Positions 1-13,468 of a stretch of 32,000 nt of DNA are shown in pieces. A model generated the notes under the pieces. The model did not search any database. It worked only from the letters and a program-made list of their open reading frames with translations, and had not been told where the DNA came from. Each line of letters starts with the position of its first letter. Within the stretch, counting starts at the first letter, position 1. The stretch is taken from contig NBVN01000003.1 of NCBI GenBank assembly GCA_003056265.1, positions 1 through 32,000 of the forward strand, given 5' to 3'. A program made the position numbers and the translations under genes. The DNA comes from Zestosphaera tikiterensis (GTDB lineage Archaea; Thermoproteota; Thermoprotei_A; Sulfolobales; NBVN01).

Positions 1-195
1 GCCTATTTAATTCCAGTTATAACATATCCATTAAATCCAACTACTCCCATTTACGGATATCTAAAGAAACTCTAGCAATTTCAACTATAATGGGCTATCT
101 CTAAGCCATGTTATGTAAAGACAAGTACATTTAAATTAAAAATAGCTTACTTAAAATATGAAGTCTTAATAATTTATTCAAGCTAATAAGATATT

Positions 196-273
196 GGGCC
201 CGTGGCCTAGCCAGGATAAGGCGCCGGCCTTCGGAGCCGGAGGTCCCGGGTTCAAATCCCGGCGGGCCCGCCA
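196..273 (+). tRNA. tRNA-Arg, anticodon TCG, CCA encoded
   Basis: Cloverleaf folded by eye. Acceptor GGGCCCG/CGGGCCC, D stem GCCT/AGGC, anticodon stem CCGGC/GCCGG with loop CTTCGGA (anticodon TCG), T arm CCGGG-TTCAAAT-CCCGG, discriminator G, CCA at 271-273. No intron. Confidence 0.93.
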
Positions 274-326
274 CATATTAACTCAAGGTTTCTTTAGTTT
301 TAATGCTGAAGGAATTCTCAACGCTA

Positions 327-1159
327 ATCTACACGACTTATATTTCTGTGGGCTTTTCTCGTTTCCACTAGATAGTATGGCCAGAAAGCAAGCCACTTAT
401 TGAGGATAACTCCCTATCCTACATGTACATAGTCACTATATTTCTTAATCTCATCTACTGGCGGTAGAGGGTTGTAAAGCGCGTTTTGCCTCAATAGCTT
501 CTGCCCCCTCTTTGTATTTCGGAGCTTGAGTCTAGGCCTTCATCAACTATAACTATTTTTGCGTCAGGCCTGGCTACTCTAAGCATTTCCCTAATGGCGA
601 GTTCCTGCTCTTCGAAGGTGTTTATACTGCCCACATGGAAGACTCCGTCGAAGCAGTTATCTTTCAGGGGTAGGTGGGAGGCGTTACCCTAATTAACACA
701 ACGTTCCAATGCTTTTTAGCAGTCCTTCTGGCATATCTCATCATGCTAATCGATATGTCAACTCCTATCACTAGGCCGTTCTTCCCAACCATCTTCCTCA
801 GTAAGGGAGGATTCTTTCCGGTACCCGTGGCCGCATCGAGAACCTTATCCCCTTTTTCAACTTTAGTAGCTTAGCTCATTTCCTTCGAGCCCTCATCTTC
901 AGCCCAAGCGTAAAGATTGGAATTATCCTATGGAAAAGCCTATAGTACTGTTCAGCGTTCTCATCATACCACTTAATCCACTGCTTATCCCTACCTGAGA
1001 CTAGAGAGTCTGGAAGCGTATCTATAATGCCATATTGCCCACGCTGTAGACACGCCCGCATCTAGTACATTGCAGCTTGCCCTTACCCAGGAAGACTAAG
1101 GGTGCTCTACAGAGAGGGCACCTTAGAAACTCCAGCACTACATCGTCATACCGCTGCAT
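327..1159 (-). pseudogene. Zn-ribbon (Trm112-like CPxC...CxxC) plus class I SAM-dependent methyltransferase, broken by several frameshifts and stops
   Basis: Hand translation of the minus strand gives five pieces in different frames. (a) MQRYDDVVLEFLRCPLCRAPLVFLGKGKLQCTRCGRVY from ATG 1159. (b) frame change to QYGIIDTLPDSL...WYDENAEQYY (ORF 876-1061). (c) frame change near 875 to EKGDKVLDAATGTGKNPPLLRKMVGKNGLVIGVDIS (SAM motif I). (d) frame change near 690 to GNASHLPLKDNCFDGVFHVGSINTFEEQELAIREMLRVARPDAKIVIVDEG. (e) stop, then further C-terminal pieces down to about 327. Confidence 0.7.
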
Positions 1160-1173
1160 GGAATATCACCCCT

Positions 1174-1620
1174 CTACGGGATTACTTTAAGCCATGGAAC
1201 TTGTTTGAAGTCCTCGTCGAATGATGCCAGTTTTTCTATACCTCTGTGTTTGCAGGTTAATACTATTTGGGCATCGTTTGGCGCTAGCCTGTAAGCCTTG
1301 ATAGTCTCGACAAGCTCGTCTGGGTTCTGGTAATCCCTTAGTACAGTTACTTTGAAGTCCTTAATGAAGCCGTTCACCCTCTCTATGGCTTCTTCGGGGA
1401 ATCCGTGTTTGGCTATATGCTTCCGGAATGGGTATTTTCCCTCAACACTGTGTTTTACCCGGGCAATCTTTGCGCCAGTAGTATAGAGCAACTCATTATA
1501 TACTATTATGGGGACGGCCATACCTTCTATAATTGCTTCCCTGACAACCTTTTCTGAGACGCTAGTTAGCTCTGTCTCGAAGAGAAAGTGATAGATTACG
1601 TTTGTGCCGAGGCATATCAT
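1174..1620 (-). CDS. vapC: PIN-domain toxin (VapC-like); first catalytic Asp replaced by Gly
   Basis: 148 aa, paralog of 10852-11304 (both end FDEDFK(Q/R)VPWLKVI). N-terminus MICLGTNVIYHF aligns with FLDTNIFYHI in the paralog; the codon is GGC where GAC is expected. ATGA start/stop overlap with the upstream antitoxin. Confidence 0.85.
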   Translation of the reverse strand: MICLGTNVIYHFLFETELTSVSEKVVREAIIEGMAVPIIVYNELLYTTGAKIARVKHSVEGKYPFRKHIAKHGFPEEAIERVNGFIKDFKVTVLRDYQNPDELVETIKAYRLAPNDAQIVLTCKHRGIEKLASFDEDFKQVPWLKVIP

Positions 1621-1814
1621 TGGACCTGAGCCTCCTCCTCAAGCTCCCGGAACTCCTCAACAGAGGATTTCCCGAGAACACCCCTATACTTCTTGATTAA
1701 CTCGTCCATACCCTCCTCCACAATAACCTTATACTCCTTACCCTCCTCAAGGTCTACATTACCCAAAGGCTTAAGCACGCCATTCTCGTACCTGACACGT
1801 ATAACCTTGGACAC
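1617..1814 (-). CDS. vapB: Small antitoxin, DUF104/AF2212-like family (named from memory)
   Basis: 65 aa, MSKVIRVRYENGVLKPLGNVDLEEGKEYKV. This is the typical archaeal N-terminus of antitoxins paired with PIN toxins. 4-nt overlap with the PIN gene. Confidence 0.85.
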   Translation of the reverse strand: MSKVIRVRYENGVLKPLGNVDLEEGKEYKVIVEEGMDELIKKYRGVLGKSSVEEFRELEEEAQVQ

Positions 1815-1975
1815 TTCCCAGCCCCACCTATAAATAATGTTCCTCAGAGTAATTATTCTTTCCTTACAAGGTGTTTCTAGATTATCCTCCCCGACATCCA
1901 GTACAGATAATCATCGTTGAAGCATATTCCCAGTCTATGGTTCCTACTGGAAACTCCATTTTTACATCCTTGACA

Positions 1976-2019
1976 TTTGGAGTCGGATGTCCTGGATTCA
2001 AATCCCAGCAGGCCCACCT
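1976..2019 (+). repeat. Decayed copy of tRNA-Arg 3' half (att-type scar)
   Basis: TTTGGAGTCGGATGTCCTGGATTCAAATCCCAGCAGGCCCACCT against tRNA 230-273. 35/44 identical by hand alignment. 7 of 9 differences are C->T or G->A. Confidence 0.7.
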
Positions 2020-2089
2020 AACTGAAGCAGTTAAATATTTGGTTTGTAGGTAATTATAGTGTTTAATGGTTCTCACCTTGGGTGTGGAG

Positions 2090-2330
2090 GGAAGGTGGGT
2101 GTGAAACCTCAAGGCTTAGGATGTGTGGCTTTCCCTAAAGCCCGAGCGTCCCCCACCGAGGGATCACCTCCTTAATCACCACGTGATGGGAGACGCGGGT
2201 TAGGGCTTTAGGTGAGGTTGTCATGAACGGGGGTGAGGGCGATAACAAGCCACCGATGAACTCAAGAGGATGGCCGAACCTAATGAACCCCAAAGCCTAC
2301 ATAGGACTACAAACACCTATGTAGGCTGAA
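2090..2330. ncRNA. GC-rich structured intergenic patch (candidate ncRNA or element relic), strand unknown
   Basis: Hand GC counts: 35/60 (2101-2160) and 33/60 (2161-2220) against 18/60 in flanking 2341-2400. Perfect 11-bp hairpin GCCTACATAGG(N10)CCTATGTAGGC at 2295-2326 and a 6-bp hairpin GGCTTT/AAAGCC at 2128-2143. No convincing ORF in any frame. Confidence 0.3.
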
Positions 2331-2438
2331 CCCCGCACAAAACGACTTACTATTTACTTGTTAATGCTTTACAGTACTCCTAGGAATTATAAAAGGAGAT
2401 GCTATACTAATATATAGGCTAATATATAGGTGTGGTGA

Positions 2439-2624
2439 TGCATTGTAATCAGTGTTGAGGAACTTAGAAAGATTGTAAGGGAGGAAGTTAGGAGAGCTCT
2501 TTTAGAAGCCCTGGTCGAGTTGTTGCCGGTTGTTAATGAAGAGGAGCAAAGAGAGATAGAAATGATTGCTGGTAGGCCAAGTGATTATTCTGAGGAGGAG
2601 TTCATGGATTGGGGTAGCGGGTAA
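2439..2624 (+). pseudogene. relB: aRelB-like antitoxin; open frame lacks an in-frame start
   Basis: Frame reads ...SVEELRKIVREEVRRALLEALVELLPVVNEEEQREIEMIAGRPSDYSEEEFMDWGSG*. The only nearby ATG (2438) is one nucleotide out of frame and stops after 6 codons. Below the 60-aa ORF cutoff. Confidence 0.5.
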
Positions 2625-2889
2625 GAATACATCGTAAGGCTCATCGCTTCTTAGAAAGCCTTCATGGAAATAAGAAGAGAATTATTGAGGAGAAGCTAAG
2701 GGAGCTTGTGGAAGCACTTAAGCATGGCGTCTTGCCTTATCGTAGGCTTGATATCTGCAGACTTAAAGGTGAATGGAAAGGCTTTCTACGTCTTCGAGTT
2801 AGCGATATAAGGATTATATTTAAAATAGATTTTAATGCTAAACAATACACATTTACCACATCCATTATAGGAGGAGCGCTTACAAATAA
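2618..2889 (+). pseudogene. relE: aRelE-like toxin; no start codon and a C-terminal frameshift
   Basis: Frame opens after TAG 2615-2617: RVRIHRKAHRFLESLHGNKKRIIEEKLRELVEALKHGVLPYRRLDICRLKGEWKGFLRLRVSDIRIIFKIDFNAK. The RelE-type ending TIHIYHIHYRRSAYK* lies in the next frame (stop 2887-2889). The in-frame reading runs on to 2911 as unrelated sequence. Confidence 0.65.
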
Positions 2890-2932
2890 CTCAGTTCAAA
2901 ATAGCAATTAAACAACACAATGCATAAGTTAA

Positions 2933-3109
2933 TTAAGTTAATATTGAAACAATAACATCTTTAGACACGCTATCCCAACTATCTAGAAAATCTCTATAGA
3001 AATCCCCGTAAACTCTCTTTAAAACACTAATAACATCTTCATCATATATAAGCATAGCTAAAACCATACATAGAACAATATGCAGTAAGACCAATAAAAC
3101 TCCTAACAC
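2933..3109 (-). CDS. Possible 58-aa small membrane protein (GTG start)
   Basis: VLGVLLVLLHIVLCMVLAMLIYDEDVISVLKRVYGDFYRDFLDSWDSVSKDVIVSILT*. One hydrophobic helix followed by an acidic tail. Just under the ORF-track cutoff, with no homology evidence. Confidence 0.25.
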   Translation of the reverse strand: MLGVLLVLLHIVLCMVLAMLIYDEDVISVLKRVYGDFYRDFLDSWDSVSKDVIVSILT

Positions 3110-3135
3110 ACTTAAACCATTGAGAGGAAATTCGT

Positions 3136-3223
3136 GACGGAGTGGCCGAGTGGTCCAAGGCGGTGGGCTCGAGACCCACTGGCGGTTATACCGCCGCGCT
3201 GGTTCAAATCCCGCCCCCCGGCA
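3136..3223 (+). pseudogene. tRNA-Ser(CGA)-like relic lacking a pairing 5' acceptor strand
   Basis: The D arm, anticodon arm GTGGG-CTCGAGA-CCCAC (CGA), long variable arm GGCGG-TTATA-CCGCC and 3' end ...CCCCCCGGCA are class II tRNA-like. The 5' seven nucleotides GACGGAG cannot pair with the 3' acceptor, and the T stem has a U-C mismatch (GCTGG/CCCGC). Confidence 0.6.
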
Positions 3224-3264
3224 TCATTCCTCTGTAATTTCCAACGCTTCCCCGGGTAGCTGTT

Positions 3265-3287
3265 GTAGTAATACGTGTAGTAATACG
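3265..3287 (+). repeat. Tandem direct repeat GTAGTAATACG x2 (12-nt period), partial third copy following
   Basis: GTAGTAATACG at 3265-3275 and 3277-3287, followed by GGTAGTGG. Lies about 200 nt upstream of the giant gene. Confidence 0.6.
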
Positions 3288-3416
3288 GGTAGTGGTTCCC
3301 TTGATTTCTAATTTCCTGTATTAGAGACGTATTATAGTCGGAGGTTCAGCTTTTTGAGGCGGGGGTGAGGTTGGAGCTTATCCTTATTCATCAGCTATAG
3401 GTATTTTCATTGGTTG

Positions 3417-3450
3417 GGTTTGACTAATTTAGTCAAACCAAATTTATATA
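3417..3450 (+). promoter_or_regulatory. Perfect 10-bp inverted repeat abutting a TATA-like box upstream of the 1593-aa gene
   Basis: GGTTTGACTA-ATT-TAGTCAAACC (3417-3439) is immediately followed by AAATTTATATAAGG (TATA-like 3443-3450), about 40 nt before ATG 3488. GAGGGTGGG lies just upstream of the start. Confidence 0.5.
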
Positions 3451-3487
3451 AGGGTGTCTACCTAGTTAGACGTGAGGGTGGGTCCTC

Positions 3488-6400
3488 ATGGTAAGGCTTA
3501 TTGCCCGGTCTCTCTCCATTATTATGGTTGTACTACTAGTACTACCCGAAGCAAATATCATTTTTGCTGAGAACACTCTATTAGGGCCGGCCTTCAATAG
3601 CGTTCAGAAAATCCCCGTGGTAAAACCCTCTAGGGATTACCTACCGGCAAATTACAGTCACGCCTTGAACCTCATATTTAATTTTAAAACCGATCAGGGG
3701 TTAAAGAGGGAAACAGGTATTACGACTACATTGATTAGTGACAATACTGTTAGAATACATGCCTACAACTACTACACTAACTACTTGGCAATAGCCGACT
3801 TAGACCTCGTAACCCTGGAGAAGAAAGTAAAATACGTCTTCTCCCAGTACTATAATGAAACACCACATATGTATGGACCAATTATCCGGATCAACGGCAC
3901 AGCCTACAACTTCATAGAACAAATGACTAATTACGGTGTCCCAGCCGGGATCCTGGGGTCAACAGATGTCGGCGCCAACACTATTGTCGTGACCCGCGTC
4001 ATGGGTTTTGACCTTCCACCGATTGAGTTAAAAATCGGTAGAGATGATACTGCTCGCCGAGACAAAGGCTATATAGTGATCGCCAGCCTCAATAAAAACA
4101 GCGCGGACACATATATTCTCGATCTCGGCGCGGTAGTTGATAGAGCATTAGGTGGACCAGGCATAATAAATAGTATTCCATTCGATGTGAGGGCATTGAA
4201 TAGTGCGAGCATCCGCTTCAATGGATCTACTATGAGCCTTGCACTCACGAGCCTTGGATGGCCCGGCGCCCCCGTGTATCAAGGCTGGATAGACTACGTC
4301 GATGGATTAGCGAGGATAGGCGAGCGTATAAATAATACTCATGTAAAGCTCTTCGCGGGGACAATAATAGCGCAGATCGATCTAGGGGATATGAAGGTTA
4401 TTAATGCATCCTTCGTGTACTCGAAGGAATATAACTCCTTCTCCATAGGTAAGCCCCTCAGTGACGGTGGATTCCTAGTACTACTCGTCTCAGTTAATTC
4501 AGTAGTATTCGTTAAGGTAGGCAAGGAACTACGCATAGAATGGGTAACTAGGATAGACCTACCTGCGATAAACCCTGATAATCCTGGGTGGTTCATCAAC
4601 CACTTTAAAATAGCTGAGGCCGGGAATGGGTACGTGGCTTTACTACCGTTTAACCTCGTGCAAAAAGGCTGGCCGAGGGAGAAACCCGTGGTAGTCTACC
4701 TGGATAAGAGCGGTCGCCTCAAGTGGAGTGCGCAGCTGCAGCCAGTGACATGGGTGCATACTGATATAGCTGAGTTATCCGCAGATAACGATACCATCTA
4801 CGTTGTATGGTCTAGTAACTATGACAATCCCCCTGGGAAACTATCATGGATAACGATGTTTGATGAGAGTGGGGAAGTGCTCGGGTCATTTAGGAACGCT
4901 GTAGGCATAGAGTATAACGCTGGCTTATTCACGGAGGTGCATGGGAGGCTCGGGAGAGATAGGACGATAATATGTAGGCCTACAGGCTATCACATATTTC
5001 ATAGAGGGGGCTTTGAGGGATGGATTGACGCCATGTACCTGCTCAACGACTATGACACTATGGAGCTAGGGGAGAACAGTCCCTTCAGGGATTTCAGGAG
5101 TAATGATGCTGACCTTGAGAAAGGCGAGGGGTGGATTGTTTCAAGTAATCCGACATGGCTGAATGTCTCCTACGGCTACACCGGGGTAGGCATAGCATAC
5201 TATAAGCACCCTATCCTCGTTAAAAGCGGGGAATCTATAACCATCAATAATACATATGTTGACACCCCACAGATAGTAACTGTGCTTAGGGATGTAGAGA
5301 GCACAGTAGAATTCACACCATCCTTCGTCTACCCAGTAGCCATTATGCCTGATGAAATAGACTTTGGACAGGTTCACATAGGGGAGGAGAAAGCTGTTGA
5401 TGTGGAAGTTGTATGGCTATCAGATATGTCTGGCACAGCAAGGGGCTACATCTACCACATTCCTAAAGCCCCATTCAAGCTCGGCGACTTATTCAAAGTG
5501 GAGGACGCCCATGTCGGTAATCATGTGCGTGTGAGAATGTACTTTAAGCCTGATAAAGAGGGGATAGCTACAGATATATTTGGCCTAGGCGCCATGATAT
5601 ATCCGGGAGTAGGCTACCCGGATCCATCTAGATTAGATTATCCTAGGCAAACAATCCCCGTGAGGGGAATCGGTGTTTCACGGGATAAGCCCATTGTTAT
5701 CAATATATCTAACTGCCCAGTTAGTCTAGGGCTTTCGGCATCCTACATCTCTATGCCTCCCTTCATACTGCCCGGTTCATCCTATAGGGAGTCAATCTAC
5801 ATAACCAACATAGGTAATGCTGAGGCAGTGTTCATTCACGGGATCCTAGTGCTACCTGGGAGCACCGTTATCTCCGTTAAGGGAGCTGATGAGGTTATAG
5901 GCCTCGGCAACGAGAGCCTGGATCCATTCTTCGCAATAGCTACAAAACTCAAGCCCCTGGAGACTAGGAGGATAGATATCTACATGAGGATAACGGCGGA
6001 GCTAGCGGATCGCAACAGCCCCTACAGGAAGCTGGGCCTAGAGCGGGCACCACATGGAGCTGTGCCCATGGAGATAGCGGCTCTACCACCTGCTCTATGG
6101 GAGGAGGCTTGGAGCTACTATAAGAAGAGCGATAAACCCCATCTCGTCGTGGACGCTGCGCTCAGAATGTACAATGACTACGTGGCCGGCATAGTGATGA
6201 AGCTGGGGGAGATGCCGGAGGATGAGCTGAATGATGCGCTAGTAAACTTGTGGATGAGTAATCAATACCTAGCCGACTACCTTGACATCGTATCCTTCAG
6301 AATGGCCATGGGCGACTGGATGTTCAATGAGACGGCTGCTTCCATAATTATTGGGGCTAATGGAGAGGTGTTGAATGCCAGCGGTATAAAGGTCAATAAT

Positions 6401-8269
6401 ACGACGAGCATGCCTAGGAGCAGTGTGCTGAGGCTTGAATCCATACTCCCAGGTATGGTAGGGGTTCAAGCTGAGAGCGATGAGCCCGGGCTCATATGGT
6501 ATCTCAGAGAGCTCTTTAAGCCCAAGGAGTTCTTGGAGACCGCTGGCCAGGGCCTTATAGGTCTGGGCGAGGGAGCTATCCAGGCCTTAACTTTCGACTT
6601 GGTGAAAATCGATGCGAAGAACGAGTACCAGGCCGTGGGGAAGACCATAGGCTATATAGCTACTAACGTGGAAATGCTTGTGGCGAATGCGGCCAGCATA
6701 AGCAAGTCCTTACCCGGGCTTTTACCCGGTCTCAAGAGTGCAGTAACTAACTTGGCGACTGCTGGTGTGAACACTGTAAAGGTTGTTGGCTCGGGCTTGG
6801 TAACGGGTTTTAAGTCCTGGCGTTTATCGAAAATGTTAGGTGGTGTAGGCCCCGCCTTGTTGATGAAGCTCTTCAAAGTCGAGTCCACAATTCCTGTCAA
6901 TATCCCGATCCTGAAGAAAACCATAGAGATACCCTGGGAGCTAAGTTTCCTCGAGAACTATAAGACGCTGCTAGGCTTCGAATACCTAATCCCGACTGAG
7001 GGGAAGACAGTCTATGGTAACATCATCAAGCTTGCCGAGAACAAGAATTTCGGGGGATGGTATATAGGTATAGGCTACACTCTCAACAAGGTCATAGAAG
7101 TAGATGGTAAGTTGGTCTATCCTGGGTGGTGGCACTACTACCTTAAATCCGGCAAGCTAGTCGTATACAACCCCGAGATAAAGGGATATACGGAGGAGCT
7201 CCTACCTATTCTCCAGCCCCTCCTAGGTGCAATGAAGGATTTAGCGATAACAGCCTACCGGAACCCTGCAGTCACCTACTTGACTACCGGCCTCGCACAC
7301 AATGCGTACTCACTTCTCTGGGGGGACATGTACAACCTTCTCCAGCTATCCTATGGGGACACTCTTTCCCGGGTAAGCTTCAGCGCAGACCCCAACGAGC
7401 TCCATATCAGGCCATCGCCCTATGTGGGTAGCCTTGATTCAGACATTTATATACAGACTCGCTTTGAGAACCTAGCTAATGCGACTGCGCCAGCCTACAA
7501 TATTACTGTCAGGGTTTACCTGGAGGGTCCGGTTAACGCTTCCACGATTACTGTGTGGGATGCCAGTCATCCTGAAGCGTTTGACGGCTATAGAGTCAGT
7601 GTTGATGACGGTAGGGTAGTTGTAGAGGTGAGGTTCACTAATATAACGCTACCCCCGAATAAGAATCCACCCGAGGGTGAGGGGTGGGTGACTCTGAAGC
7701 TCAGATTCCTGGGTGATGCTAGGCCTGGAGACAGCATTAGGGCCTATGCCGATGTCTACTTCGACTATAACCCGCCAGTCAGAACCAACACGGAGTCTAC
7801 AACATATGACCCAGATCCCCCTGAGGTAAGCATTAATGCTTCTGTTGAGCCGGGTAAGATCAGGGTGAGTCTCACATGTCTCGATAGTGTTTCAGGATGC
7901 AACTACACAGTATTGATGTTGCGGAAGGGTGTGAACCCGCTGGCTAACGAGACCCTGCTGGAGCCGGGGCCTGGAGGTGTCTACGAGGTGAGCCTAGAGC
8001 CGGGAACCTACACTCTTGTGGCCATAGGCATTGATAATGCTGGTAACAGAGTCTGGAGCAACACAACTATAAATGTGCCGGGAATCACTACGAATACACC
8101 CTGGGGCAACACCACGACTATAAACGTGCCGGGAACTACTAGCGCCACGAATGAGAGTGAAAGCCGTGGTGGAGGTAGTGGTATCCCCATCTGGATCTAC
8201 CTGGCAATCCCCCTGGTAGCGGTTGCCGCTGTGATCCTTGTAGTTAAGTTGCGACGTCCTAAGAGCTAG
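3488..8269 (+). CDS. Giant secreted, C-terminally membrane-anchored, heavily sequon-decorated cell-surface protein (S-layer/adhesin-like)
   Basis: Uninterrupted 1593-codon ORF. N-terminal signal-like MVRLIARSLSIIMVVLLVLPEANIIFA and C-terminal TM IPIWIYLAIPLVAVAAVILVV followed by KLRRPKS. At least 23 N-x-S/T sequons by eye. Segments IDFGQVHIGEEKAVDVEV and SYRESIYITNIGNAEAV look Ig/PapD-like. C-terminal LPPNKNPPEGEGWVTLKLRF...ADVYFDYNPPVRTN and DNAGN look like adhesin-type motifs. Confidence 0.9.
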   Translation: MVRLIARSLSIIMVVLLVLPEANIIFAENTLLGPAFNSVQKIPVVKPSRDYLPANYSHALNLIFNFKTDQGLKRETGITTTLISDNTVRIHAYNYYTNYLAIADLDLVTLEKKVKYVFSQYYNETPHMYGPIIRINGTAYNFIEQMTNYGVPAGILGSTDVGANTIVVTRVMGFDLPPIELKIGRDDTARRDKGYIVIASLNKNSADTYILDLGAVVDRALGGPGIINSIPFDVRALNSASIRFNGSTMSLALTSLGWPGAPVYQGWIDYVDGLARIGERINNTHVKLFAGTIIAQIDLGDMKVINASFVYSKEYNSFSIGKPLSDGGFLVLLVSVNSVVFVKVGKELRIEWVTRIDLPAINPDNPGWFINHFKIAEAGNGYVALLPFNLVQKGWPREKPVVVYLDKSGRLKWSAQLQPVTWVHTDIAELSADNDTIYVVWSSNYDNPPGKLSWITMFDESGEVLGSFRNAVGIEYNAGLFTEVHGRLGRDRTIICRPTGYHIFHRGGFEGWIDAMYLLNDYDTMELGENSPFRDFRSNDADLEKGEGWIVSSNPTWLNVSYGYTGVGIAYYKHPILVKSGESITINNTYVDTPQIVTVLRDVESTVEFTPSFVYPVAIMPDEIDFGQVHIGEEKAVDVEVVWLSDMSGTARGYIYHIPKAPFKLGDLFKVEDAHVGNHVRVRMYFKPDKEGIATDIFGLGAMIYPGVGYPDPSRLDYPRQTIPVRGIGVSRDKPIVINISNCPVSLGLSASYISMPPFILPGSSYRESIYITNIGNAEAVFIHGILVLPGSTVISVKGADEVIGLGNESLDPFFAIATKLKPLETRRIDIYMRITAELADRNSPYRKLGLERAPHGAVPMEIAALPPALWEEAWSYYKKSDKPHLVVDAALRMYNDYVAGIVMKLGEMPEDELNDALVNLWMSNQYLADYLDIVSFRMAMGDWMFNETAASIIIGANGEVLNASGIKVNNTTSMPRSSVLRLESILPGMVGVQAESDEPGLIWYLRELFKPKEFLETAGQGLIGLGEGAIQALTFDLVKIDAKNEYQAVGKTIGYIATNVEMLVANAASISKSLPGLLPGLKSAVTNLATAGVNTVKVVGSGLVTGFKSWRLSKMLGGVGPALLMKLFKVESTIPVNIPILKKTIEIPWELSFLENYKTLLGFEYLIPTEGKTVYGNIIKLAENKNFGGWYIGIGYTLNKVIEVDGKLVYPGWWHYYLKSGKLVVYNPEIKGYTEELLPILQPLLGAMKDLAITAYRNPAVTYLTTGLAHNAYSLLWGDMYNLLQLSYGDTLSRVSFSADPNELHIRPSPYVGSLDSDIYIQTRFENLANATAPAYNITVRVYLEGPVNASTITVWDASHPEAFDGYRVSVDDGRVVVEVRFTNITLPPNKNPPEGEGWVTLKLRFLGDARPGDSIRAYADVYFDYNPPVRTNTESTTYDPDPPEVSINASVEPGKIRVSLTCLDSVSGCNYTVLMLRKGVNPLANETLLEPGPGGVYEVSLEPGTYTLVAIGIDNAGNRVWSNTTINVPGITTNTPWGNTTTINVPGTTSATNESESRGGGSGIPIWIYLAIPLVAVAAVILVVKLRRPKS
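8060..8140 (+). repeat. In-gene tandem repeat encoding NTTINVPGIT / NTTTINVPGTT stalk
   Basis: AACACAACTATAAATGTGCCGGGAATCACT (8060-8089) and AACACCACGACTATAAACGTGCCGGGAACTACT (8108-8140). Thr/Asn-rich linker just before the C-terminal anchor. Confidence 0.7.
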
Positions 8270-8440
8270 TCAAAATCTCCACCATTTTTCCTCGGTAACG
8301 ATTAGCCATATGTTTTTCAAGTATCACCACTTTCATAATCCTGCTCCTGCCCCTTTTAGTTTGCCTAGTGCCTTATCAGCTATGGCTTGAATCTCCGGGC
8401 ATAGGATTCTCACAACCACTATGTAGTTTTATTTTAATCT

Positions 8441-8730
8441 CTACAGCACGTGAAAGGGGTTTTCGCGAGAAATAAGTATCCACTTATCCAATTCGAGCCA
8501 TGAGTCAACATGACGACTACTAACACCTAATCCAGTAAGCTCCTCTATACGCACTTCCTAGCTATATTCCCTTCCCGCTGTCTTATCAGCTCAATCATAT
8601 CAATATCCTGAGATATCTGTTCTGGCTGAATCCACGGTATTTAGCTCCTTAACGATTTCCTTACTTACATTATCTGCTGGACCGCCTATTACATGTATCC
8701 AATATAGCGCCTCGTAAAGCAGTTCCGTCT
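8441..8730 (-). pseudogene. Remnant of a winged-helix/HTH-type regulator gene (multiple frame breaks)
   Basis: Minus-strand pieces in three frames: ELLYEALYWIHVIGGPADNVSKEIVKELNTVDSARTDIS / QDIDMIELIRQREGNIA / EVRIEELTGLGVSSRHVDSWLELDKWILISRENPFHVL*. The HTH-like pattern is only suggestive. Confidence 0.3.
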
Positions 8731-8810
8731 TTATAGATGTTGATAAGTGAAAAATATCAATTAGATATATTTAGATGTCTTTATTTATGGATTTGTTGAG
8801 TTTCGACATC

Positions 8811-8960
8811 GATGATGATGGTGAGGTGGGTGAGCGTTAAATGAATTCAAGTTCGATGTAGGGAGTTATGAAGGAATGATTAGCTCCCGCAGTCGGGCTT
8901 GAAGGATCCCATAGGCGATGAAAACCTACGTAAGCATTGATCTACTTACGTATGTGCGAA
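8811..8960. ncRNA. GC-richer hairpin-bearing intergenic patch (candidate ncRNA or relic)
   Basis: Hairpin GGGAG(T)...(G)CTCCC at 8861-8888 with ATGAAGGAATGAT in its loop. 8-bp hairpin TACGTAAG(N10)CTTACGTA at 8927-8952, followed by GAACCC as in patch 2090-2330. Confidence 0.25.
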
Positions 8961-9131
8961 CCCTACCTAGCAACTTATTAAGTTTGACCAGTACGTTTAA
9001 CACAGTAACCGTTACCTAGTCACTCTACCAAATTCTCCTGATATTGCATTATAAATCTTGGCTTACATAAGTTGCTTGTAAATGTAGGTATACAATATTT
9101 CATGCTAAACTTTATCATCCTGTTGATGTCT

Positions 9132-9665
9132 TTAGAGCTCACCTATCTCTCTGAGAAATTCTTCAAGTACTTCCTTAGATATTATCCAGAAACCGCTTTC
9201 TATGAGCTGGTCTATTACCTGCTTCGCCTTAGGGATCAATCCCTTATACTTGGCTAATGTTATTATACCTAGCGTACTCATCACTTATAACCCCAGCTTC
9301 TTAGCTAGGTTTCTCGTGTCCCTGTCGTCTACGAGTAGCAGATCCGCGTTACGCTTTAGTGCTAGAACTATTGCTTCTGCTTCGTCAGTATTTACAAACT
9401 CTTCAAGAAGAGCTACCAGCCTCTTATTACCAGCTTTACCTACATCTATGAAATCTGCTCTCACTATCTTCTCACTACCGGGCTTATTCTCAACCGTTAT
9501 CTCCTTCCAGACCGCTTCCGGGATAAGTATTTTCCTGAAGAGTTTCTCTAAGATATCTAAACGGCATATCTTGACGAATGCAATAATAACGCTTGAATTA
9601 GAGACAACGAGAAGCTCTTCCTTTCCCCTACCACTTTCTTGTCTTTTTCGCAAGCTTCTTGGCAA
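9132..9665 (-). pseudogene. DUF3368-like PIN-type toxin interrupted by an in-frame TAA
   Basis: ORF 9285-9665 ends ...RNLAKKLGL then TAA (9285-9287). The same frame continues VMSTLGIITLAKYKGLIPKAKQVIDQLIESGFWIISKEVLEEFLREIGEL* (to stop 9132-9134), which is the expected C-terminal half. The N-terminal motif reads VVSNSS where this family (from memory) has an Asp. Confidence 0.7.
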
Positions 9666-9909
9666 GCTCCAGGTCTTCCCTCAACTCTTCTTCATCGTAG
9701 TGTAGTGGTATACCTTCTCTAGCTAGCAGTTCTAGGAAGTCCCACTTCGAAAGACTAGCTATTCTCCTAGCCTGACCCAGACTAGCTATACCTTTCTCGT
9801 AAAGCCTCAACGCTAGCTCTACTCTGAATCTCCCCTCAAGCTCGTCAGGAGGAACCCTAAGACCCTCAGGAACCTCAATAACAACACGCTTAGCCCTAGT
9901 TTTAAACAC
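9628..9909 (-). CDS. UPF0175-family antitoxin-like protein
   Basis: 93 aa, ELALRLYEKGIASLGQARRIASLSKWDFLELLAREGIPLHYDEEELREDLE. This is the typical UPF0175 pattern (from memory). Lies upstream of and overlapping the DUF3368-like gene. Confidence 0.8.
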   Translation of the reverse strand: MFKTRAKRVVIEVPEGLRVPPDELEGRFRVELALRLYEKGIASLGQARRIASLSKWDFLELLAREGIPLHYDEEELREDLELAKKLAKKTRKW

Positions 9910-10103
9910 TCATAACCCCCTCTACAGAGATACTTATACTTGTGGAAGATATTAATCTTAAACTACTTCAAGATAAACTAAGCTTTAACAACATTAACAT
10001 CATTAAACCTCCAAGCCAAATATACTGGAAGAAAGTATGTATGAAAAACTATACCTATATGTCCTAGTAATTAAGGACACTTCCTTATAAGGATTGATCT
10101 CTC

Positions 10104-10143
10104 GAGCCGTAGGTCCCGGGTTCAAATCCTGGCGGGCCCGCCA
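10104..10143 (+). repeat. Near-perfect copy of tRNA-Arg 3' end (att-type scar)
   Basis: GAGCCGTAGGTCCCGGGTTCAAATCCTGGCGGGCCCGCCA against tRNA 234-273. 38/40 identical, and the next two bases (CA) also match. Confidence 0.85.
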
Positions 10144-10511
10144 CAGAATTGAGGCCACTTATTTTCATATGATCTCTGCTTCATTTTATTTGGTTGTATT
10201 CATGAGCTAGCATTAACCTTACCGCATTTAATCAAGTTGAAGTTGTTAGATGTTGAGTATTGATAATGTAACCAACGCCGTTAGGGTTTTCGTCGTAAAT
10301 CAGACGCAACCATCTATTCTTAAGCCTCCTCACAAACTTCCTTGCTGGTATGAACCTATCTGGTACATTCTCTATGTACTTTACTTAGCATGTGCATCGC
10401 CAAACTTTTTAACATTAACTTCTCTCCCCTCTGCGTACCAAGTGGTAATAGCGTATGCCTAGGATTACTGCAACTACCAGCGCGGGAGGACTCCTGAAAG
10501 CCATAGCTATG

Positions 10512-10739
10512 TCAAAGAACATGGGTATTAAACCTAGGTAACCTGAATGTCTGATCCACGAGTATATTCCATAACAACTTATTAGCTATATAGTTAATCC
10601 TCTCAATGCTCTCATGAGCTTTAAGATGAGCTTTATAACTAAGGTAGTGTATATAAGACCCTAAGATAAACATAGACCATCCAAGAACGCGTAAACCAGC
10701 ACTAGTGATATTAAGCTTTAAAAGAAAACCCATAACCAC
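10512..10739 (-). pseudogene. Fragment of a small hydrophobic membrane protein gene (flanking pieces in other frames)
   Basis: The 75-aa ORF is hydrophobic. Immediately upstream, MLKKNILIALKFTLIFYSLAWLWVFF* lies in another frame, and downstream PMFFDIAMAFRSPPALVVAVILGIRYYHLVRRGE lies in a third. Consistent with a frameshifted gene. Confidence 0.3.
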
Positions 10740-10851
10740 GCTAAAGAATAGAATATGAGGGTAAACTTAAGAGCGATGAGAATGTTTTTCTTCAACATCA
10801 CTTTCACTAATGCATGTAACCTAGCTTTTAGCACTTGGGTTTACAACCTCT

Positions 10852-11304
10852 TCATGAGATAACCTTTAGCCACGGCACCCTCTTGAAGTCCTCGTCGAAG
10901 GTTAGGATCACGTCTATACCATAGTGTTTACAGGTTAGTGCTATTATGGCATCGCTTGGCAGAAGCTTGTAGCTTAGCATGGTTTCGTAAAGTTCCTGCT
11001 CGGCATAAATGCTTGGTACTAACCTTATGTTTAATCTCCTGATTAATTCTCTCACTGCATTAACGACTTCCCCTGGATATCCATGTTTCTTCACCCATCT
11101 CTTCACTGAGTGAATCCCTTTCACACCATGTTTATGTTCTAGGTAATGTACTGTTGATGTATAGATTATCTCGTTATGGACAACCATATCTATAACGTAG
11201 TCTCCAGGATTTTCTTCTAGTAGAGTTAGAACCTGGTCTGTCTTAGGCGTATTATGGAGGATATGGTAAAATATATTAGTGTCTAAGAAAATCAAGAAAG
11301 CCAC
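10852..11304 (-). CDS. vapC: PIN-domain toxin (VapC-like), apparently intact
   Basis: 150 aa, GTG start. FLDTNIFYHIL...NEIIYTS...PSDAIIALTCKH...FDEDFKRVPWLKVIS retains the acidic PIN residues. Overlaps the upstream antitoxin by 13 nt. Confidence 0.88.
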   Translation of the reverse strand: MAFLIFLDTNIFYHILHNTPKTDQVLTLLEENPGDYVIDMVVHNEIIYTSTVHYLEHKHGVKGIHSVKRWVKKHGYPGEVVNAVRELIRRLNIRLVPSIYAEQELYETMLSYKLLPSDAIIALTCKHYGIDVILTFDEDFKRVPWLKVIS

Positions 11305-11489
11305 GTCTCCTCCAAGTACTTCTCTAACTCCTTCTCGTCAGACCTGCCTAAGATGCCGATAATGTCTTTCAACCTACTCCTAAGATTTCTTTCGATCCTC
11401 ACCTGAACTTCCTCACCTTCCTTAAGCTCTAAAGACTCTAAAGGCTTCAACACACCATTCTCGTACTTAACTCTAACAACCTTGGACAT
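11292..11489 (-). CDS. vapB: DUF104/AF2212-like antitoxin
   Basis: 65 aa, MSKVVRVKYENGVLKPLESLELKEGEEVQV. Paralog of 1617-1814 and 14501-14704. Confidence 0.85.
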   Translation of the reverse strand: MSKVVRVKYENGVLKPLESLELKEGEEVQVRIERNLRSRLKDIIGILGRSDEKELEKYLEETWLS

Positions 11490-11630
11490 CCAGCTACACC
11501 CAATTATATTTACGGCTTTAAAGGGTTAAAAACGTGTTGCGATAGGATAAAAACTTACCATAACAGAATCACCAATCATTTATCTGACAATGTTACAAAT
11601 CCTACATGACTTCATGCAATATTTTAACAT

Positions 11631-11686
11631 GGACGCCAGCCTTCGGAGCCGAAGATCCTAGACTCAAATACTGGCGATCCACCACA
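11631..11686 (+). repeat. Strongly decayed copy of tRNA-Arg from the anticodon stem to the 3' end
   Basis: GGACGCCAGCCTTCGGAGCCGAAGATCCTAGACTCAAATACTGGCGATCCACCA against tRNA 219-273. About 40/55 identical with one gap. The anticodon loop CTTCGGA is preserved, and the differences are mostly G->A and C->T. Confidence 0.7.
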
Positions 11687-11715
11687 AAACAGGTATTAGC
11701 TATTCATGATAATAG

Positions 11716-11886
11716 TTATTTAATTACAGTCTCTCGCACTGGTCCTAAATTTTTCAGTATTACGATTTTGTCTTTCTCTCGGAAGGTTATCTCTAACTTC
11801 TCGAAGAAGCCTTCACGACCCAAGATCATTATATCTGATGCTATGTAATCGGTGAATGCTATAGGTATTGTTAGCCATTTTGCCTT
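11716..11886 (-). pseudogene. Possible AbrB/SpoVT-like antitoxin remnant without a partner toxin
   Basis: 56-codon open frame KAKWLTIPIAFTDYIASDIMILGREGFFEKLEITFREKDKIVILKNLGPVRETVIK*. The only ATG (11878-11876) is out of frame. The resemblance to AbrB-fold antitoxins is weak. Confidence 0.2.
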
Positions 11887-11980
11887 TTATGTAATTCCTC
11901 GATATTCTCAGATATTCTTACTTACTTTCCCTACTCTCAAAGCTTAAAGTTTATATTTTAGGTAAGTGAGTATATATTCT

Positions 11981-12160
11981 TGGAGTTGATGAGGGGGTTT
12001 ATCCACCTAATAGAATAGGTGGATCCCTGAGGAAAAATATCGTAAAGATGGGAGAGAGGGGTAAGCGTATGCGGGGGTGCTTGGGTCGCCCCTAAGAGCC
12101 TCCGCAGTGAAGGATGAAGCCCGACAGAGCGGAGGAACAAAAAATGAAGGGATGAAGAAA
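11981..12160. ncRNA. GC-rich structured intergenic patch (candidate ncRNA or relic)
   Basis: Hand GC count 37/60 for 12061-12120. Perfect 8-bp hairpin ATCCACCT(N8)AGGTGGAT at 12001-12024, bracketed by TGATGA (11987-11992) and CTGA (12027-12030). Second hairpin CTCCGC(N23)GCGGAG at 12100-12134 with GTGAAGGATGAAG in its loop. ATGAAGGGATGAAG at 12144-12157. Confidence 0.3.
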
Positions 12161-12197
12161 GTAGTTAAGAGCTATTGAGAGCGATTAGGAGTATCGT

Positions 12198-12479
12198 TCA
12201 GACCTGAACCCTACCTATACCTTCTATTTCTATGTTTACGTGTTTCTTAAGGTACGCTTTCACATATCCACCAACACCTGCGAGATATGCTGGCTCAGCA
12301 TTATCGAAGCTAATCCCAGCGTACTCTGCTACGCTCGTATGAAACAAGCTTATCGAAGCACCACTGTCCACTAAGACATAGACAAGGATCTTGCCATGAG
12401 AACCTATAAGCCGTACGGGTATAATCGGGTAATACCTCCTACGGCGCTCAACATATTTAAACTCCACACTACCAGCCAT
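12198..12479 (-). CDS. Single-domain retropepsin-like (clan AA) aspartic protease
   Basis: 93 aa with the active-site motif in LVYVLVDSGASISLF (D-S-G-A). The size fits a homodimeric retropepsin fold. Confidence 0.8.
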   Translation of the reverse strand: MAGSVEFKYVERRRRYYPIIPVRLIGSHGKILVYVLVDSGASISLFHTSVAEYAGISFDNAEPAYLAGVGGYVKAYLKKHVNIEIEGIGRVQV

Positions 12480-12532
12480 AGTTGGTGAAACCTCTACACT
12501 GTTTCTCTAGAGAATATCTTAGCCTCCCCCAG

Positions 12533-12745
12533 CTAGACTACTAGAAGGTCGTGGCTTGGAACCTTTATGATGCCATAGCTTCCTCTCTCATAACCCTTCT
12601 CCTCCATTATCCCCTCCAGTTCTTCCAGAGTACGAGCATATGCTATAACTCTCCCATCTACAATAGCGGCCCAATGACCCTCTGGAACCTTATCCAGCTC
12701 ACCCTTCTTAATAACCTCGATAGGCTTACTCTTCAACCATACCAC
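12533..12745 (-). CDS. Small protein, DUF5678-like (from memory), upstream partner of the retropepsin-like gene
   Basis: 70 aa, GHWAAIVDGRVIAYARTLEELEGIMEEKGYERGSYGIIKVP. Same strand, 53 nt upstream of the protease gene. Confidence 0.6.
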   Translation of the reverse strand: MVWLKSKPIEVIKKGELDKVPEGHWAAIVDGRVIAYARTLEELEGIMEEKGYERGSYGIIKVPSHDLLVV

Positions 12746-13108
12746 CCCAGTTCTCTAGCCCAGGTACTACTTACGTATAGGGCTTAATAATCGTGCTATG
12801 ATAACACTCCGCAAATCTCCTCCCAGTATCTTCCTTTAACCTCTTCGTGATTCAGAAGCTCTATAACAATAAAATTACGTCTAGGCTAGGATAGATTATT
12901 CAGGGGGTGAAAGTGTCCCTTACTGTTAAGGCTACCTCTTTAAGATATTTTTGACTTGAAATCAGTATGCCCTAGCTATGTATGACTAGGTTGTAGATAC
13001 TTGCTTTATGTTTCTTAGCACATCCTATCTCCTATCTGACCTTTCCTAGCTCTTAAAGCAACTTTCGGTTATAACGCTACGTTGGAGACTCTAACTTTTA
13101 TGAAACAT

Positions 13109-13468
13109 CTACTGTTCTTTCCTCAATTCTAGTTTAAGACCTTGTTCCTTCAGTCTTTCAAAATCTTCATCTTTTGATACTAAGATAAGGTCGTTTGCGA
13201 TAGCTGTTGCTGCTATAAGTAAGTCGGCATCAGAAATTAATTGCCCTTTCTGCTTTAATGATGTGTAAAGTTCACAGTATTTTAACACTACTTTATTATT
13301 AATGCTTAATACCTCGAAGCTCTTCTCAAGCAATTGTTTTGCTTTGCCCCTCTTTCTCGGAGGTATACCTCTAAGTATTTCTATCATAGTGATTATGGAG
13401 ATCGCTCCTTCCTCATATACACCTCTCCTAAGGTTATCTATCAACACGCTTGTATCGATTAACTTCAT
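13109..13468 (-). CDS. vapC: PIN-domain toxin VapC, apparently intact
   Basis: 119 aa. MKLIDTSVLID...ITMIEIL...ISDADLLIAATAIANDLILVSKDEDF carries the four PIN acidic positions. ATGA overlap with the upstream gene. Confidence 0.88.
   Translation of the reverse strand: MKLIDTSVLIDNLRRGVYEEGAISIITMIEILRGIPPRKRGKAKQLLEKSFEVLSINNKVVLKYCELYTSLKQKGQLISDADLLIAATAIANDLILVSKDEDFERLKEQGLKLELRKEQ

Follow-up and report, generated by a model that had tools for sequence, protein, structure and literature searches.

A probable decaying array of toxin–antitoxin cassettes, without an integrase, at the tRNA-Arg(TCG) gene of Zestosphaera tikiterensis

Introduction

Tandem integration at transfer RNA (tRNA) genes is documented for archaea (PMC8371274, PMC3119797), as is the loss of integrase genes (PMC8371274), and the accretion of cis-mobilizable elements (CIMEs) is documented in bacteria (PMC5704250). 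Among the archaeal elements, pAH1 uses tRNA-Arg(TCG) (PMC3119797). The locus described here has the same target. It lies in the first 32,000 nucleotides, forward strand, of contig NBVN01000003.1 (GenBank assembly GCA_003056265.1) of Zestosphaera tikiterensis, a member of the Desulfurococcaceae; this whole stretch is called the window. Near its left end, an intact tRNA-Arg(TCG) gene is followed by three partial copies of its 3′ part, and the interval is probably a decaying accretion array made of toxin–antitoxin cassettes and devoid of an integrase. Each partial copy marks the right end (attR) of an element of which a toxin–antitoxin operon is the cargo that survives.

Toxin–antitoxin genes of the vapBC type are very abundant in crenarchaeal genomes, and their spread has been loosely ascribed to insertion sequence (IS) elements and plasmids (PMC3718332, PMC3119797). 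In S. islandicus, the movement of vapBC has been ascribed to flanking IS remnants (PMC3718332), and selection against the loss of archaeal vapBC has been discussed (PMC3119797).

The tRNA-Arg gene and its partial copies

A preliminary description, made from the sequence alone, placed an intact tRNA-Arg(TCG) gene at 196–273, followed by three partial copies in direct orientation: 1976–2019 (35 of 44 positions identical), 10104–10143 (38 of 40, plus two matching flanking bases) and 11631–11686 (about 40 of 55, with the anticodon loop). ARAGORN and Rfam (67.5 bits) agree on the intact gene, and gapped local alignment recovers all three copies, in direct orientation relative to the tRNA, with only small shifts at their ends:

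196–273, forward strand: tRNA-Arg(TCG), found by ARAGORN and Rfam; its 3′ 47–52 nt are the attachment (att) core on the attL/attB side.
1976–2018, forward strand: partial copy 1 (attR core), 35 of 43 positions identical, all eight differences being changes from GC to AT.
10104–10145, forward strand: partial copy 2 (attR core), 40 of 42 positions identical.
11634–11686, forward strand: partial copy 3 (attR core), 41 of 54 positions identical, with the anticodon loop and a CCAGCC variant.

Copy 1 spans positions 35–77 of the tRNA, copy 2 runs from position 39 to 2 nt beyond the CCA end, and copy 3 begins at position 27, has one gap and includes the TCG anticodon loop. When the tRNA is compared with the window by BLAST, copy 1 is matched at 1976–2018 (81% over 43 nt, E 1e-7), copy 2 at 10104–10145 (95% over 42 nt, E 8e-13) and copy 3 at 11634–11676, reaching 11686 (79% over 43 nt, E 1e-6). 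As a control for chance, the window was shuffled 100 times with its dinucleotides preserved, and the 52-nt 3′ part of the tRNA was scored against each result. The best scores from the shuffles had a mean of 11.0 (sd 1.2) and a maximum of 16, while the local scores of copies 2, 1 and 3 are 36, 27 and 25, so that all three stand above the shuffled background, and the next-best real match in the window outside tRNA genes scores 11. The tRNA-His gene is 79% identical to tRNA-Arg over 58 nt by BLAST. The copies are nevertheless specific to tRNA-Arg, and not generic T-arm matches, because the anticodon stem and loop and the acceptor strand are common to them and tRNA-Arg. Identification of the copies as a split tRNA gene or a tRNA half was rejected: they start at 27, 35 and 39, their stems are broken and an intact full-length gene is present.

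Over the three copies, 21 of the 23 differences from the tRNA are changes from GC to AT and 19 of the 23 are transitions, and the pairing of the T-stem and acceptor is broken. This pattern fits the neutral decay of a GC-rich relic in a genome of 42% GC. The preliminary description had supposed att arms that were already divergent on arrival, which is supported in part. A CCCACC variant is common to copy 1 and the right-hand att of its cassette type in two metagenome loci (L036, L066; the loci are introduced below), and the CCAGCC variant is common to copy 3 and att copies in two others (L093, L012). Most of the other mismatches are unique changes from GC to AT, and therefore decay in place dominates. 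It had also remarked that the copy nearest the tRNA is not the best preserved. The identities, 81%, 95% and 76% in order along the window, agree with this, but the remark rests on small numbers because the difference between copies 1 and 2 (8 mismatches in 43 against 2 in 42) is statistically weak (Fisher p about 0.09, a rough estimate of our own).

In the variable loop of tRNA-Arg, two adjacent positions differ between the window (GGAGGTCCC at 240–246) and the strain contig L001 (GGAAATCCC at 3925–3931), even though the two sequences have only 16 differing positions in the 4.2 kb around the tRNA. The two-position difference could be the trace of a crossover with a slightly different attP.

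Related loci and their integrases

An exact search with the 3′ 46 nt of the tRNA, allowing two degenerate positions, retrieved 88 metagenome loci, labelled here with L-numbers. An intact full tRNA-Arg(TCG) is present in 69 of the 88, and 18 have at least two direct att copies. In 12 loci, a gene encoding a PF16795 integrase lies immediately 3′ of the tRNA or of an att copy and is co-directional with it. These 12 integrases have 435–443 amino acid residues, with an N-terminal helix-turn-helix and the PF16795 “archaeal phage integrase” domain. They form family A (L009, L093, L080, L051, L061, L075, L025, L079 and L083) and family B (L089, L016 and L048), which are about 31–33% identical to each other. 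The att-linked integrases match the PHROG integrase family phrog_5127 and are 27–30% identical to fusellovirus integrases over the catalytic half. Their homologues are annotated as integrases in metagenome-assembled genomes (MAGs) named Ignisphaera, Thermosphaera, Zestosphaera and others. In L093, an arm of the kind called type II below is followed by the core and then by the family A integrase gene; this order is attP-like, being the layout expected of an attP beside its integrase.

Three longer contigs (L096–L098) carry the integrase gene 55–75 nt after tRNA-Arg(CCG) or tRNA-Gly, and their elements reach more than 10 kb past the integrase. The tRNA-Arg(CCG) genes in the longer contigs have the same 41-nt 3′ core as the window tRNA. 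The PF16795 integrases of L080, L016, L096–L098 and L101 are intact when integrated, with the att core 50–130 nt upstream of the start codon, and the tRNA targets of these integrases are tRNA-Arg(TCG), tRNA-Arg(CCG), tRNA-Gly(TCC) and tRNA-Thr(TGT). The PF16795 domain has been tied to “suicidal” integrases, in which att is inside the open reading frame (2021 review, PMC8371274). The tRNA-adjoining members found here may represent a non-suicidal branch.

The viral collection held no match for the exact 32-nt att core or for integrase family A. The sole match in the plasmid collection was the att core inside the integrase gene of a 5.7-kb Saccharolobus plasmid, NC_013777.1, in which a 46-nt stretch is 92% identical to the tRNA-Arg att core; we take this plasmid to be pSSVi. 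No cassette was found on any plasmid of that collection. Exact-protein look-ups yielded three short contigs that come from other samples: L001 is 99.6% identical to the window over positions 1–4174, and L099 and L100 cover the stretch from vapBC3 to UPF0175. A comparison of gene order with related genomes, anchored on the methionyl-tRNA synthetase (MetRS) gene, reached only distant relatives in the genome collection (at most 59% MetRS identity) and revealed no common order. The tRNA-Arg(TCG) gene of Ignicoccus pacificus, 8.4 kb from MetRS, was rejected as a case of synteny; its orientation differs and the proximity was judged coincidental.

Within the tRNA-Arg interval itself, 129 stop-to-stop frames of at least 36 amino acids, in 274–3487 and 8270–15067, were compared with Pfam at E values up to 1. 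No recombinase is among the 25 families listed for these frames, and the other 30 families all have E values above 0.016. The families found are PIN (five frames), AF2212-like (three), UPF0175, DUF3368, DUF5678, VapB_antitox and ParE_toxin, together with an aspartyl-protease fold and pieces of a Trm112-plus-S-adenosylmethionine (SAM)-methyltransferase gene. The long open reading frame between the two scanned parts, of 1593 amino acids, has DUF7619 as its sole Pfam match and no integrase match, and a tblastn search of the window with three att-linked integrases matched only tRNA-derived frames. Neither PF07935 nor PF16795 has a match near tRNA-Arg or the partial copies among the 129 frames. Fragments of an integrase gene split by integration (intN and intC), as left by elements of the Sulfolobus spindle-shaped virus (SSV) type, were considered for the frames that run through the copies and were rejected: the frames are open on both strands, yet no integrase family is matched. 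On the left of the copies are vapB promoters rather than intC.

Two contigs carry the integrase that bears the name of Z. tikiterensis; one begins 79 nt before its tRNA (L101) and the other 91 nt before the integrase gene (L102). Many integrase-bearing loci also end shortly past the integrase gene. Arrays are probably under-represented in MAGs, because assemblies seem to break at repeated att sites.

Toxin–antitoxin cassettes and their attachment arms

The tRNA aside, recurrence in the 88 loci is limited to two kinds of window sequence, the toxin–antitoxin genes and the DNA between them and the partial copies. In the window, these sequences are as follows:

1174–1814, reverse strand: vapC (PIN, 148 aa) and vapB (AF2212-like, 65 aa), overlapping by 4 nt and antisense to the tRNA (Pfam).
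1810–1975, forward strand: type I attP-type arm (P arm), in which the GTTTCC repeats and the TATA-like box immediately preceding the core are decayed; it also has an inverted repeat, GGTTCC-N-GGAAAC.
9132–9909, reverse strand: UPF0175 antitoxin-like gene (9628–9909) and a PIN-like/DUF3368 gene present as two adjacent frames (9285–9665 and 9132–9284) (Pfam).
10030–10103, forward strand: type II attP-type arm, with decayed GTCC/GGAC motifs and a CTTATAAGG box.
10852–11489, reverse strand: a second vapC (PIN, 150 aa) and vapB (AF2212-like, 65 aa), antisense to the tRNA (Pfam).

The order along the forward strand is thus tRNA-Arg; about 900 bp with a broken Trm112/methyltransferase gene; vapCB, the type I arm and copy 1; about 7.1 kb; DUF3368/UPF0175, the type II arm and copy 2; about 700 bp; and vapCB, an arm and copy 3. 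Beyond copy 3 are three toxin–antitoxin-like pairs with no detectable att, followed by Nudix, DNA methylase and MetRS genes. By their gene layout, in which a small antitoxin gene precedes and overlaps the gene of a PIN-domain toxin, the pairs at 1174–1814, 10852–11489 and 13109–13692 are predicted to be type II VapBC toxin–antitoxin systems.

In relatives, the same components are arranged in a discrete unit. It consists of an att core, a short arm of about 125 nt, vapC and vapB antisense to the tRNA, a long arm of about 160 nt and a second att core, and the att-to-att intervals are 928–1063 bp (n = 9). Between the att cores of the cassettes in L036, L045, L059 and L091 there is vapBC only, without an integrase. 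Window positions 1175–2018, from the vapC stop codon to the end of copy 1, align end to end with units in L036, L059, L091, L012 and L066 at 75–79% identity, and the alignment ends at att. At the protein level, the pair at 1174–1814 is 78–89% identical to the att-bounded pairs of the same five loci. The pair at 10852–11489 is 71–73% identical to that of the first cassette of L091 and resembles L078. The UPF0175 gene has counterparts with 79–86% identity on the left of att copies in L064, L077 and L088.

Two families can be told apart among the long arms. In type I, GTTTCC occurs three times, GGAAAC is present in inverted orientation and a TTTATAAAT box precedes the core by 7–8 nt; in type II, CTGTCCCA occurs twice, accompanied by an inverted TGGGACA and a CTTATAAGT box. 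Compared with the remainder of the loci, the arm hexamers show a 14- to 26-fold enrichment. An nhmmer model of the type I arm alone, built from 11 metagenome arms, matches the window at 1810–1969 with an E value of 3.6e-22. A model of the type II arm plus core matches 10030–10143 (E 6.5e-20; arm alone, E 0.003), and the type II arm of the window is 72–84% identical to the arms in L020, L037, L040, L056, L077 and L078. In L064, L077 and L088, UPF0175/DUF3368 and DUF5678/protease pairs occur together with type II arms. In the window, UPF0175/DUF3368 lies on the left of copy 2 and DUF5678/protease on the right of copy 3, both being genes that are associated with type II elsewhere. On the right of the core, the first 30 nt or so (AAATACC..TATAWAAG..) are common to type I cassettes and the family B integrase loci.

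The junctions of the cassettes are at the cores. A vapBC cassette found in both L059 and L091, with 97% identity over 1023 nt, has the intact tRNA as its left neighbour in L059 and the att copy of another vapBC cassette in L091. In L032, its left arm comes after yet a third cassette. On the right of the core, 87–89 of 89 nt are identical among these three loci; on the left, they are unrelated. L036 and L059 are collinear at 83% identity through the upstream chromosome, the tRNA and the first cassette, and diverge exactly after the right-hand att. Arrays of other species differ exactly at the att cores. In several arrays, neighbouring cassettes have 37–58% protein identity and cores that are perfect over at least 46 nt. 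This combination of low cargo identity with perfect cores is weaker evidence than it looks, since a search by exact match favours perfect cores.

Two palindromes accompany the cores. The palindromic TATA-like box (TTTATAAAT or CTTATAAGT) lies 7–8 nt upstream of nearly every partial att copy (L008–L095; window 10085–10094), and in L061 the TATA-like box, the core and the integrase gene follow each other in succession. This suggests a promoter that acts on the integrase gene only while the element is circular and is parted from it when the element integrates. A second palindrome, perfect and conserved (TAGAGTTGCAACTCTA and variants), is found about 35–55 nt to the right of the att core in L059, L068, L011, L035 and L044, within the short left arm of vapBC cassettes just past the vapC stop codon. 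It may be a terminator or a protein-binding site.

The preliminary description interpreted the copies as stacked integration scars at a tRNA gene without a tyrosine recombinase in 274–15000. Both points are borne out, the former by attP-type arms that accompany each copy and recur beside tRNA-Arg att copies in other genomes, the latter by the Pfam and tblastn searches. Its division of the interval into modules of 1.7, 8.1 and 1.5 kb fares less evenly: the first and last are vapBC cassettes preceded on the left by additional DNA, but the 8.1-kb module is not demonstrable as one element.

Formation of the array

The following history would account for these features. PF16795-type tyrosine integrases would recombine the attP of an element with the 3′ 47–52 nt of tRNA-Arg. 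Each insertion would rebuild the tRNA and leave a partial copy (attR) at the far end of the element, and repeated insertion, at the tRNA or at an existing att copy, would produce a head-to-tail stack. What remains in the window is three right ends, each with an antisense toxin–antitoxin operon, an attP-type arm and an att core, with extra DNA between them. The integrase genes have been lost, and the att copies are drifting towards AT. The toxin–antitoxin pairs presumably persist as their loss is selected against, if they follow the general behaviour of such systems. The 1-kb units would be non-autonomous, an archaeal counterpart of CIMEs, excised and inserted in trans by resident or incoming integrases, and the window would be an old, inactive array of such cassettes.

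The scars, the homology of the arms, the linkage to integrases elsewhere and the differing neighbours of a cassette with junctions at the core are all displayed by the compared sequences; the order of the insertion events is one that we infer. On its own, the window is an ordinary decayed example. Taken with its relatives, it leads to a broader proposal, which is put forward tentatively and at slightly less than an even chance. Desulfurococcales may harbour non-autonomous cassettes of about 1 kb, each with a toxin–antitoxin operon and both attP arms, that are moved in trans by PF16795 integrases into the 3′ half of tRNA-Arg(TCG). Such movement would build integron-like arrays, with an order that varies among close relatives, and would constitute a dedicated vapBC route, with the window as a dead array.

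Several points weigh against the interpretation of the interval as an accretion array. The order of preservation of the copies departs from the simple rule that the newest copy adjoins the tRNA, though insertion into internal att copies, or att sites that had already diverged on arrival, could also produce it. The arm of copy 3 is too decayed to be classified by motifs or profile models. The modules of the window are not clean cassettes, since extra DNA lies ahead of their vapC genes (about 900 bp in one case and about 700 bp in the other), and a tRNA-Ser(CGA) gene, an odd cargo for a mobile element, lies within the 8.1-kb interval. As retrieval of the loci required an exact 46-nt match, selection accounts in part for their perfect att cores. 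For Z. tikiterensis, no integrase specific to tRNA-Arg was found, and the sole family member found under that name adjoins tRNA-Thr. Finally, no excision product, empty site or presence/absence polymorphism was encountered for this species; L001, L099 and L100, three short contigs, have the arrangement of the window.

The 8.1-kb interval

The strongest competing explanation concerns only the middle of the array, whose interior is summarised here:

2020–9131, no strand assigned: interior of the 8.1-kb interval, with a GC-rich patch (2060–2345), a ParE-like remnant (2618–2908), tRNA-Ser(CGA) (3135–3225) and the gene for a 1593-aa DUF7619 protein (3488–8269).

This interval may have been captured as a single element, may be a composite, or may be native chromosome that a rearrangement trapped. 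In the last case, an integrase-mediated or homologous rearrangement would have enclosed ordinary chromosomal DNA between att copies, and no element would have been inserted there. We regard this as a real possibility, rated below even. The interval holds tRNA-Ser(CGA), and none of its genes recurs in the 88 att-anchored loci. In relatives, tRNA-Arg(CCG) genes with an identical 41-nt 3′ core would be partner sites for such a rearrangement, and integrase-driven inversions between tRNA genes are documented in Thermococcales (PMC5495485). On the other hand, the large open reading frame has 49% GC against 42% for the window, and toxin–antitoxin remnants (ParE-like) are also found within the interval. 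The nearest MetRS in the genome collection is only 59% identical, which leaves no close relative for comparison.

The 1593-aa protein encoded at 3488–8269 is a secreted surface protein, with a signal-like N terminus, the DUF7619 domain and a C-terminal membrane anchor; the GC content of its gene is the 49% just quoted. It has no homologue among the 88 att-anchored loci, and an exact look-up of the protein, aimed at DNA to the left of the window, found nothing. The GC-rich patch at 2060–2345 lies within an AT-rich intergenic region and is kept in the strain contig L001. No credible Rfam match was found in 1900–3500, even at E values up to 5. The predicted folding of the patch is moderately better than that of shuffles on both strands (z –2.2 and –2.9), and it may be an unannotated structured RNA or a relic.

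Other explanations of the scars and cassettes

A second explanation accepts site-specific integration and denies mobility to the 1-kb units. The scars would be plain deletion remnants of integrase-bearing elements of more than 10 kb, in which the toxin–antitoxin pair beside attR was kept because its loss is harmful, and the units would have spread by descent only. The integrase-bearing relatives are indeed large (more than 10 kb past the integrase in L096–L098), the window modules contain irregular extra DNA and pseudogenes, and the first cassette of L036 and L059 lies in a collinear context of 83% identity, as vertical descent would have it; post-integration loss of integrases is documented in archaea (PMC8371274). 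However, independent deletions should not yield a uniform unit of 0.93–1.06 kb with a conserved left arm of about 125 nt, nor would they place a 97%-identical cassette, joined at the core, beside three left neighbours that differ from each other. Moreover, L093, the sole integrase-linked attP-like locus, has no toxin–antitoxin pair beside its arm. As a full account, deletion is rather unlikely. For the narrower question of whether the 1-kb units are mobilised in trans or are plain deletion remnants, the balance is about even. Uniformity of size, conservation of the arms at either side and the shuffling of neighbours speak for cassette mobility; against it, neither a circle nor an empty site was seen, and no tRNA-Arg integrase was found for Z. 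tikiterensis.

A third explanation dispenses with site-specific recombination altogether. A unit consisting of the tRNA 3′ half plus vapBC would have been multiplied by tandem duplication or unequal crossing-over and would then have diverged, with gene conversion from the tRNA refreshing some copies. The three AF2212-like/PIN pairs of the window are paralogous, and the units are head-to-tail with a constant gene orientation. Yet the copies do not begin at one tRNA position on the left (they start at 35, 39 and 27), two unrelated families of arms flank them, and non-tRNA variants such as CCAGCC are common to partial copies across genomes. Neighbouring cassettes have only 37–58% protein identity although their cores are perfect, and integrase genes abut the same core in 12 loci. 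This explanation is very improbable, and the homology of the arms to an integrase-linked att site refutes it in large part.

Least probable of all, to the point of being barely credible, is that the partial copies are functional RNA genes (promoter-driven tRNA 3′ halves, or tRNA-like signals for processing or termination), to which the palindromic TATA-like box (TTTATAAAT or CTTATAAGT) 7–8 nt upstream of nearly every metagenome partial copy lends some colour, but the window copies are decaying from GC to AT with broken T-stem and acceptor pairing, they start at tRNA positions 27–39 and not at the 37/38 site at which split tRNA genes are divided, an intact tRNA-Arg(TCG) is present, and the box is probably better read as a circular-form integrase promoter across attP, as in L061.

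Other features of the window

On either side of the copies, the island has further genes:

491–1159, reverse strand: broken Trm112-like plus SAM-methyltransferase gene, part of the extra DNA between the tRNA and the first cassette (Pfam Trm112p, Methyltransf_11/25/31 and Ubie_methyltran over separate frames).
12198–12745, reverse strand: DUF5678 and retropepsin-like protein genes (Pfam), with no detectable att copy.
13109–13692, reverse strand: VapB_antitox and PIN genes (VapB-VapC) (Pfam), with no detectable att copy.
14026–14704, reverse strand: AF2212-like vapB and a vapC split in two (Pfam), with no detectable att copy.

Neither local alignment nor the arm-plus-core profile models detected a further att copy in 11687–15000, on the right of the remaining toxin–antitoxin pairs. 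The DUF5678/protease pair is also found between att copies in L077. The three AF2212-like/PIN pairs of the window have 66–74% DNA identity in parts. The island is accumulating pseudogenes: the Trm112-methyltransferase gene is in at least four frames, and the split vapC (14026–14501) consists of frames of 80 and 83 amino acids beside an intact AF2212-like vapB. The PIN-like/DUF3368 gene (window 9132–9665; L099 2297–2830) is also in two frames, divided by a single stop, TAA, that is directly followed by GTG ATG. A 37%-identical homologue in L055 (447–899) has the same split, which may be a conserved two-gene layout or a case of read-through rather than a pseudogene.

A separate scar lies at the tRNA-His gene, outside the tRNA-Arg interval:

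24523–24852, reverse strand: N-terminal fragment of an SSV-type integrase (intN), a 109-aa frame that reads into tRNA-His(GTG) at 24512–24588 (Pfam PF07935, SSV1_ORF_D-335; E 2.9e-5, 24.7 bits against a cut-off of 22).
24927–24978, forward strand: fourth remnant, truncated, with the tail of a type II arm (TGGGACATTACTTTATAAGTGTCA) and only the initial 12 nt of the tRNA-Arg core (GCCTTCGAAGCC) (E 4.1e-8 with the type II nhmmer model).

The intN fragment is the classic scar of a different, “suicidal” SSV-type integrase. No intC or second tRNA-His copy was found in the window. The remnant at 24927–24978 lies about 75 nt beyond the start of the intN frame and about 340 nt downstream of tRNA-His.

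Comparison with known systems

That integrases leave stacked scars at tRNA genes is already known. What the present locus and its relatives add is a recurrent, uniform unit without an integrase, consisting of a toxin–antitoxin pair, two att arms and a tRNA-Arg core, which forms arrays in many hot-spring and vent archaea. A full-text literature search of limited coverage found descriptions of tandem integration, of CIMEs and of vapBC in tRNA insertions, and no archaeal att-flanked cassette with toxin–antitoxin genes only; within that search, such cassettes appear to be undescribed in archaea. If cassettes of this kind do move, an att-bounded cassette that borrows an integrase would be a concrete mechanism for the spread of vapBC, testable by PCR. 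It would also explain the pile-up of toxin–antitoxin pairs at tRNA genes, where they would outlive the elements that brought them.

As in genomic islands generally, a tRNA gene is accompanied by a direct repeat of its 3′ part. An integrase inside the element, the other usual feature of such islands, is absent from the window and present in 12 homologous loci. Among archaeal elements, SSV1, pSSVi and pAH1 integrate at tRNA-Arg, and in these elements and in “gene capture” the target is the tRNA 3′ half, as here (PMC3119797, PMC3718332, PMC8371274). Successive integrations at one tRNA, and degeneration that leaves traces, are likewise described for archaeal tRNA-integrated elements (PMC3119797, PMC3718332, PMC8371274). 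SSV-type integration, however, splits the integrase gene and leaves intN over the tRNA, a feature that is absent at tRNA-Arg and present at tRNA-His in the window. The integrases linked to the tRNA-Arg att in relatives are, in contrast, intact beside the tRNA, with att outside the open reading frame.

The degenerate stacks at tRNA genes of Sulfolobales and Prochlorococcus work in the same way as the tRNA-Arg array. In the tycheposon islands of Prochlorococcus, in the part of the preprint drawn on here, repeated integration at a tRNA pushes older elements inward, and the island contains partial tRNAs and degenerate elements throughout, as in the window (bioRxiv 10.1101/2020.12.28.424599). The host of tycheposons is bacterial, the cargo elements are larger and the integrases are different, and that part of the preprint contains no recurrent mini-cassette with only toxin–antitoxin genes.

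A close parallel is provided by the CIMEs and other elements related to ICESt1, an integrative and conjugative element of Streptococcus thermophilus, and by tandems of integrative and mobilizable elements (IMEs), in which integrase and transfer genes have been lost and attL and attR are kept, as in the window (PMC5704250). New elements enter the att of a resident, so that three or more att copies accumulate at the tRNA 3′ end, as they do here (PMC5704250). Retention of attL and attR without integration and transfer genes is seen in the window and in the cassettes of L036, L045, L059 and L091. The arms are also related to those of an integrase-bearing element, as in CIMEs, since a type II arm is common to copy 2 and the integrase-linked att of L093. 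The archaeal array differs in its host, in its PF16795-type integrases and in its units of about 1 kb, which have only a toxin–antitoxin pair and both arms; its mobilisation is a proposal.

Cassette arrays of integrons, including archaeal ones, consist of small units of one or two genes that end in a recombination site and have no recombinase of their own, with an order that varies between relatives (PMC9668308); the cassettes described here are similar in all these respects. They differ in that IntI, attI and attC are lacking, that a tRNA 3′ half bordered by attP-type arms serves as the site and that each cassette brings a TATA-like promoter of its own. Identification of the array as an integron was therefore rejected, as the interval contains no integrase, its repeats are tRNA-derived and the TATA-like promoters belong to the cassettes themselves. 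Toxin–antitoxin cassettes stabilise the superintegron arrays of Vibrio. If the units at tRNA-Arg(TCG) are indeed mobilised in trans, they would constitute an archaeal parallel to both CIMEs and integron cassettes.

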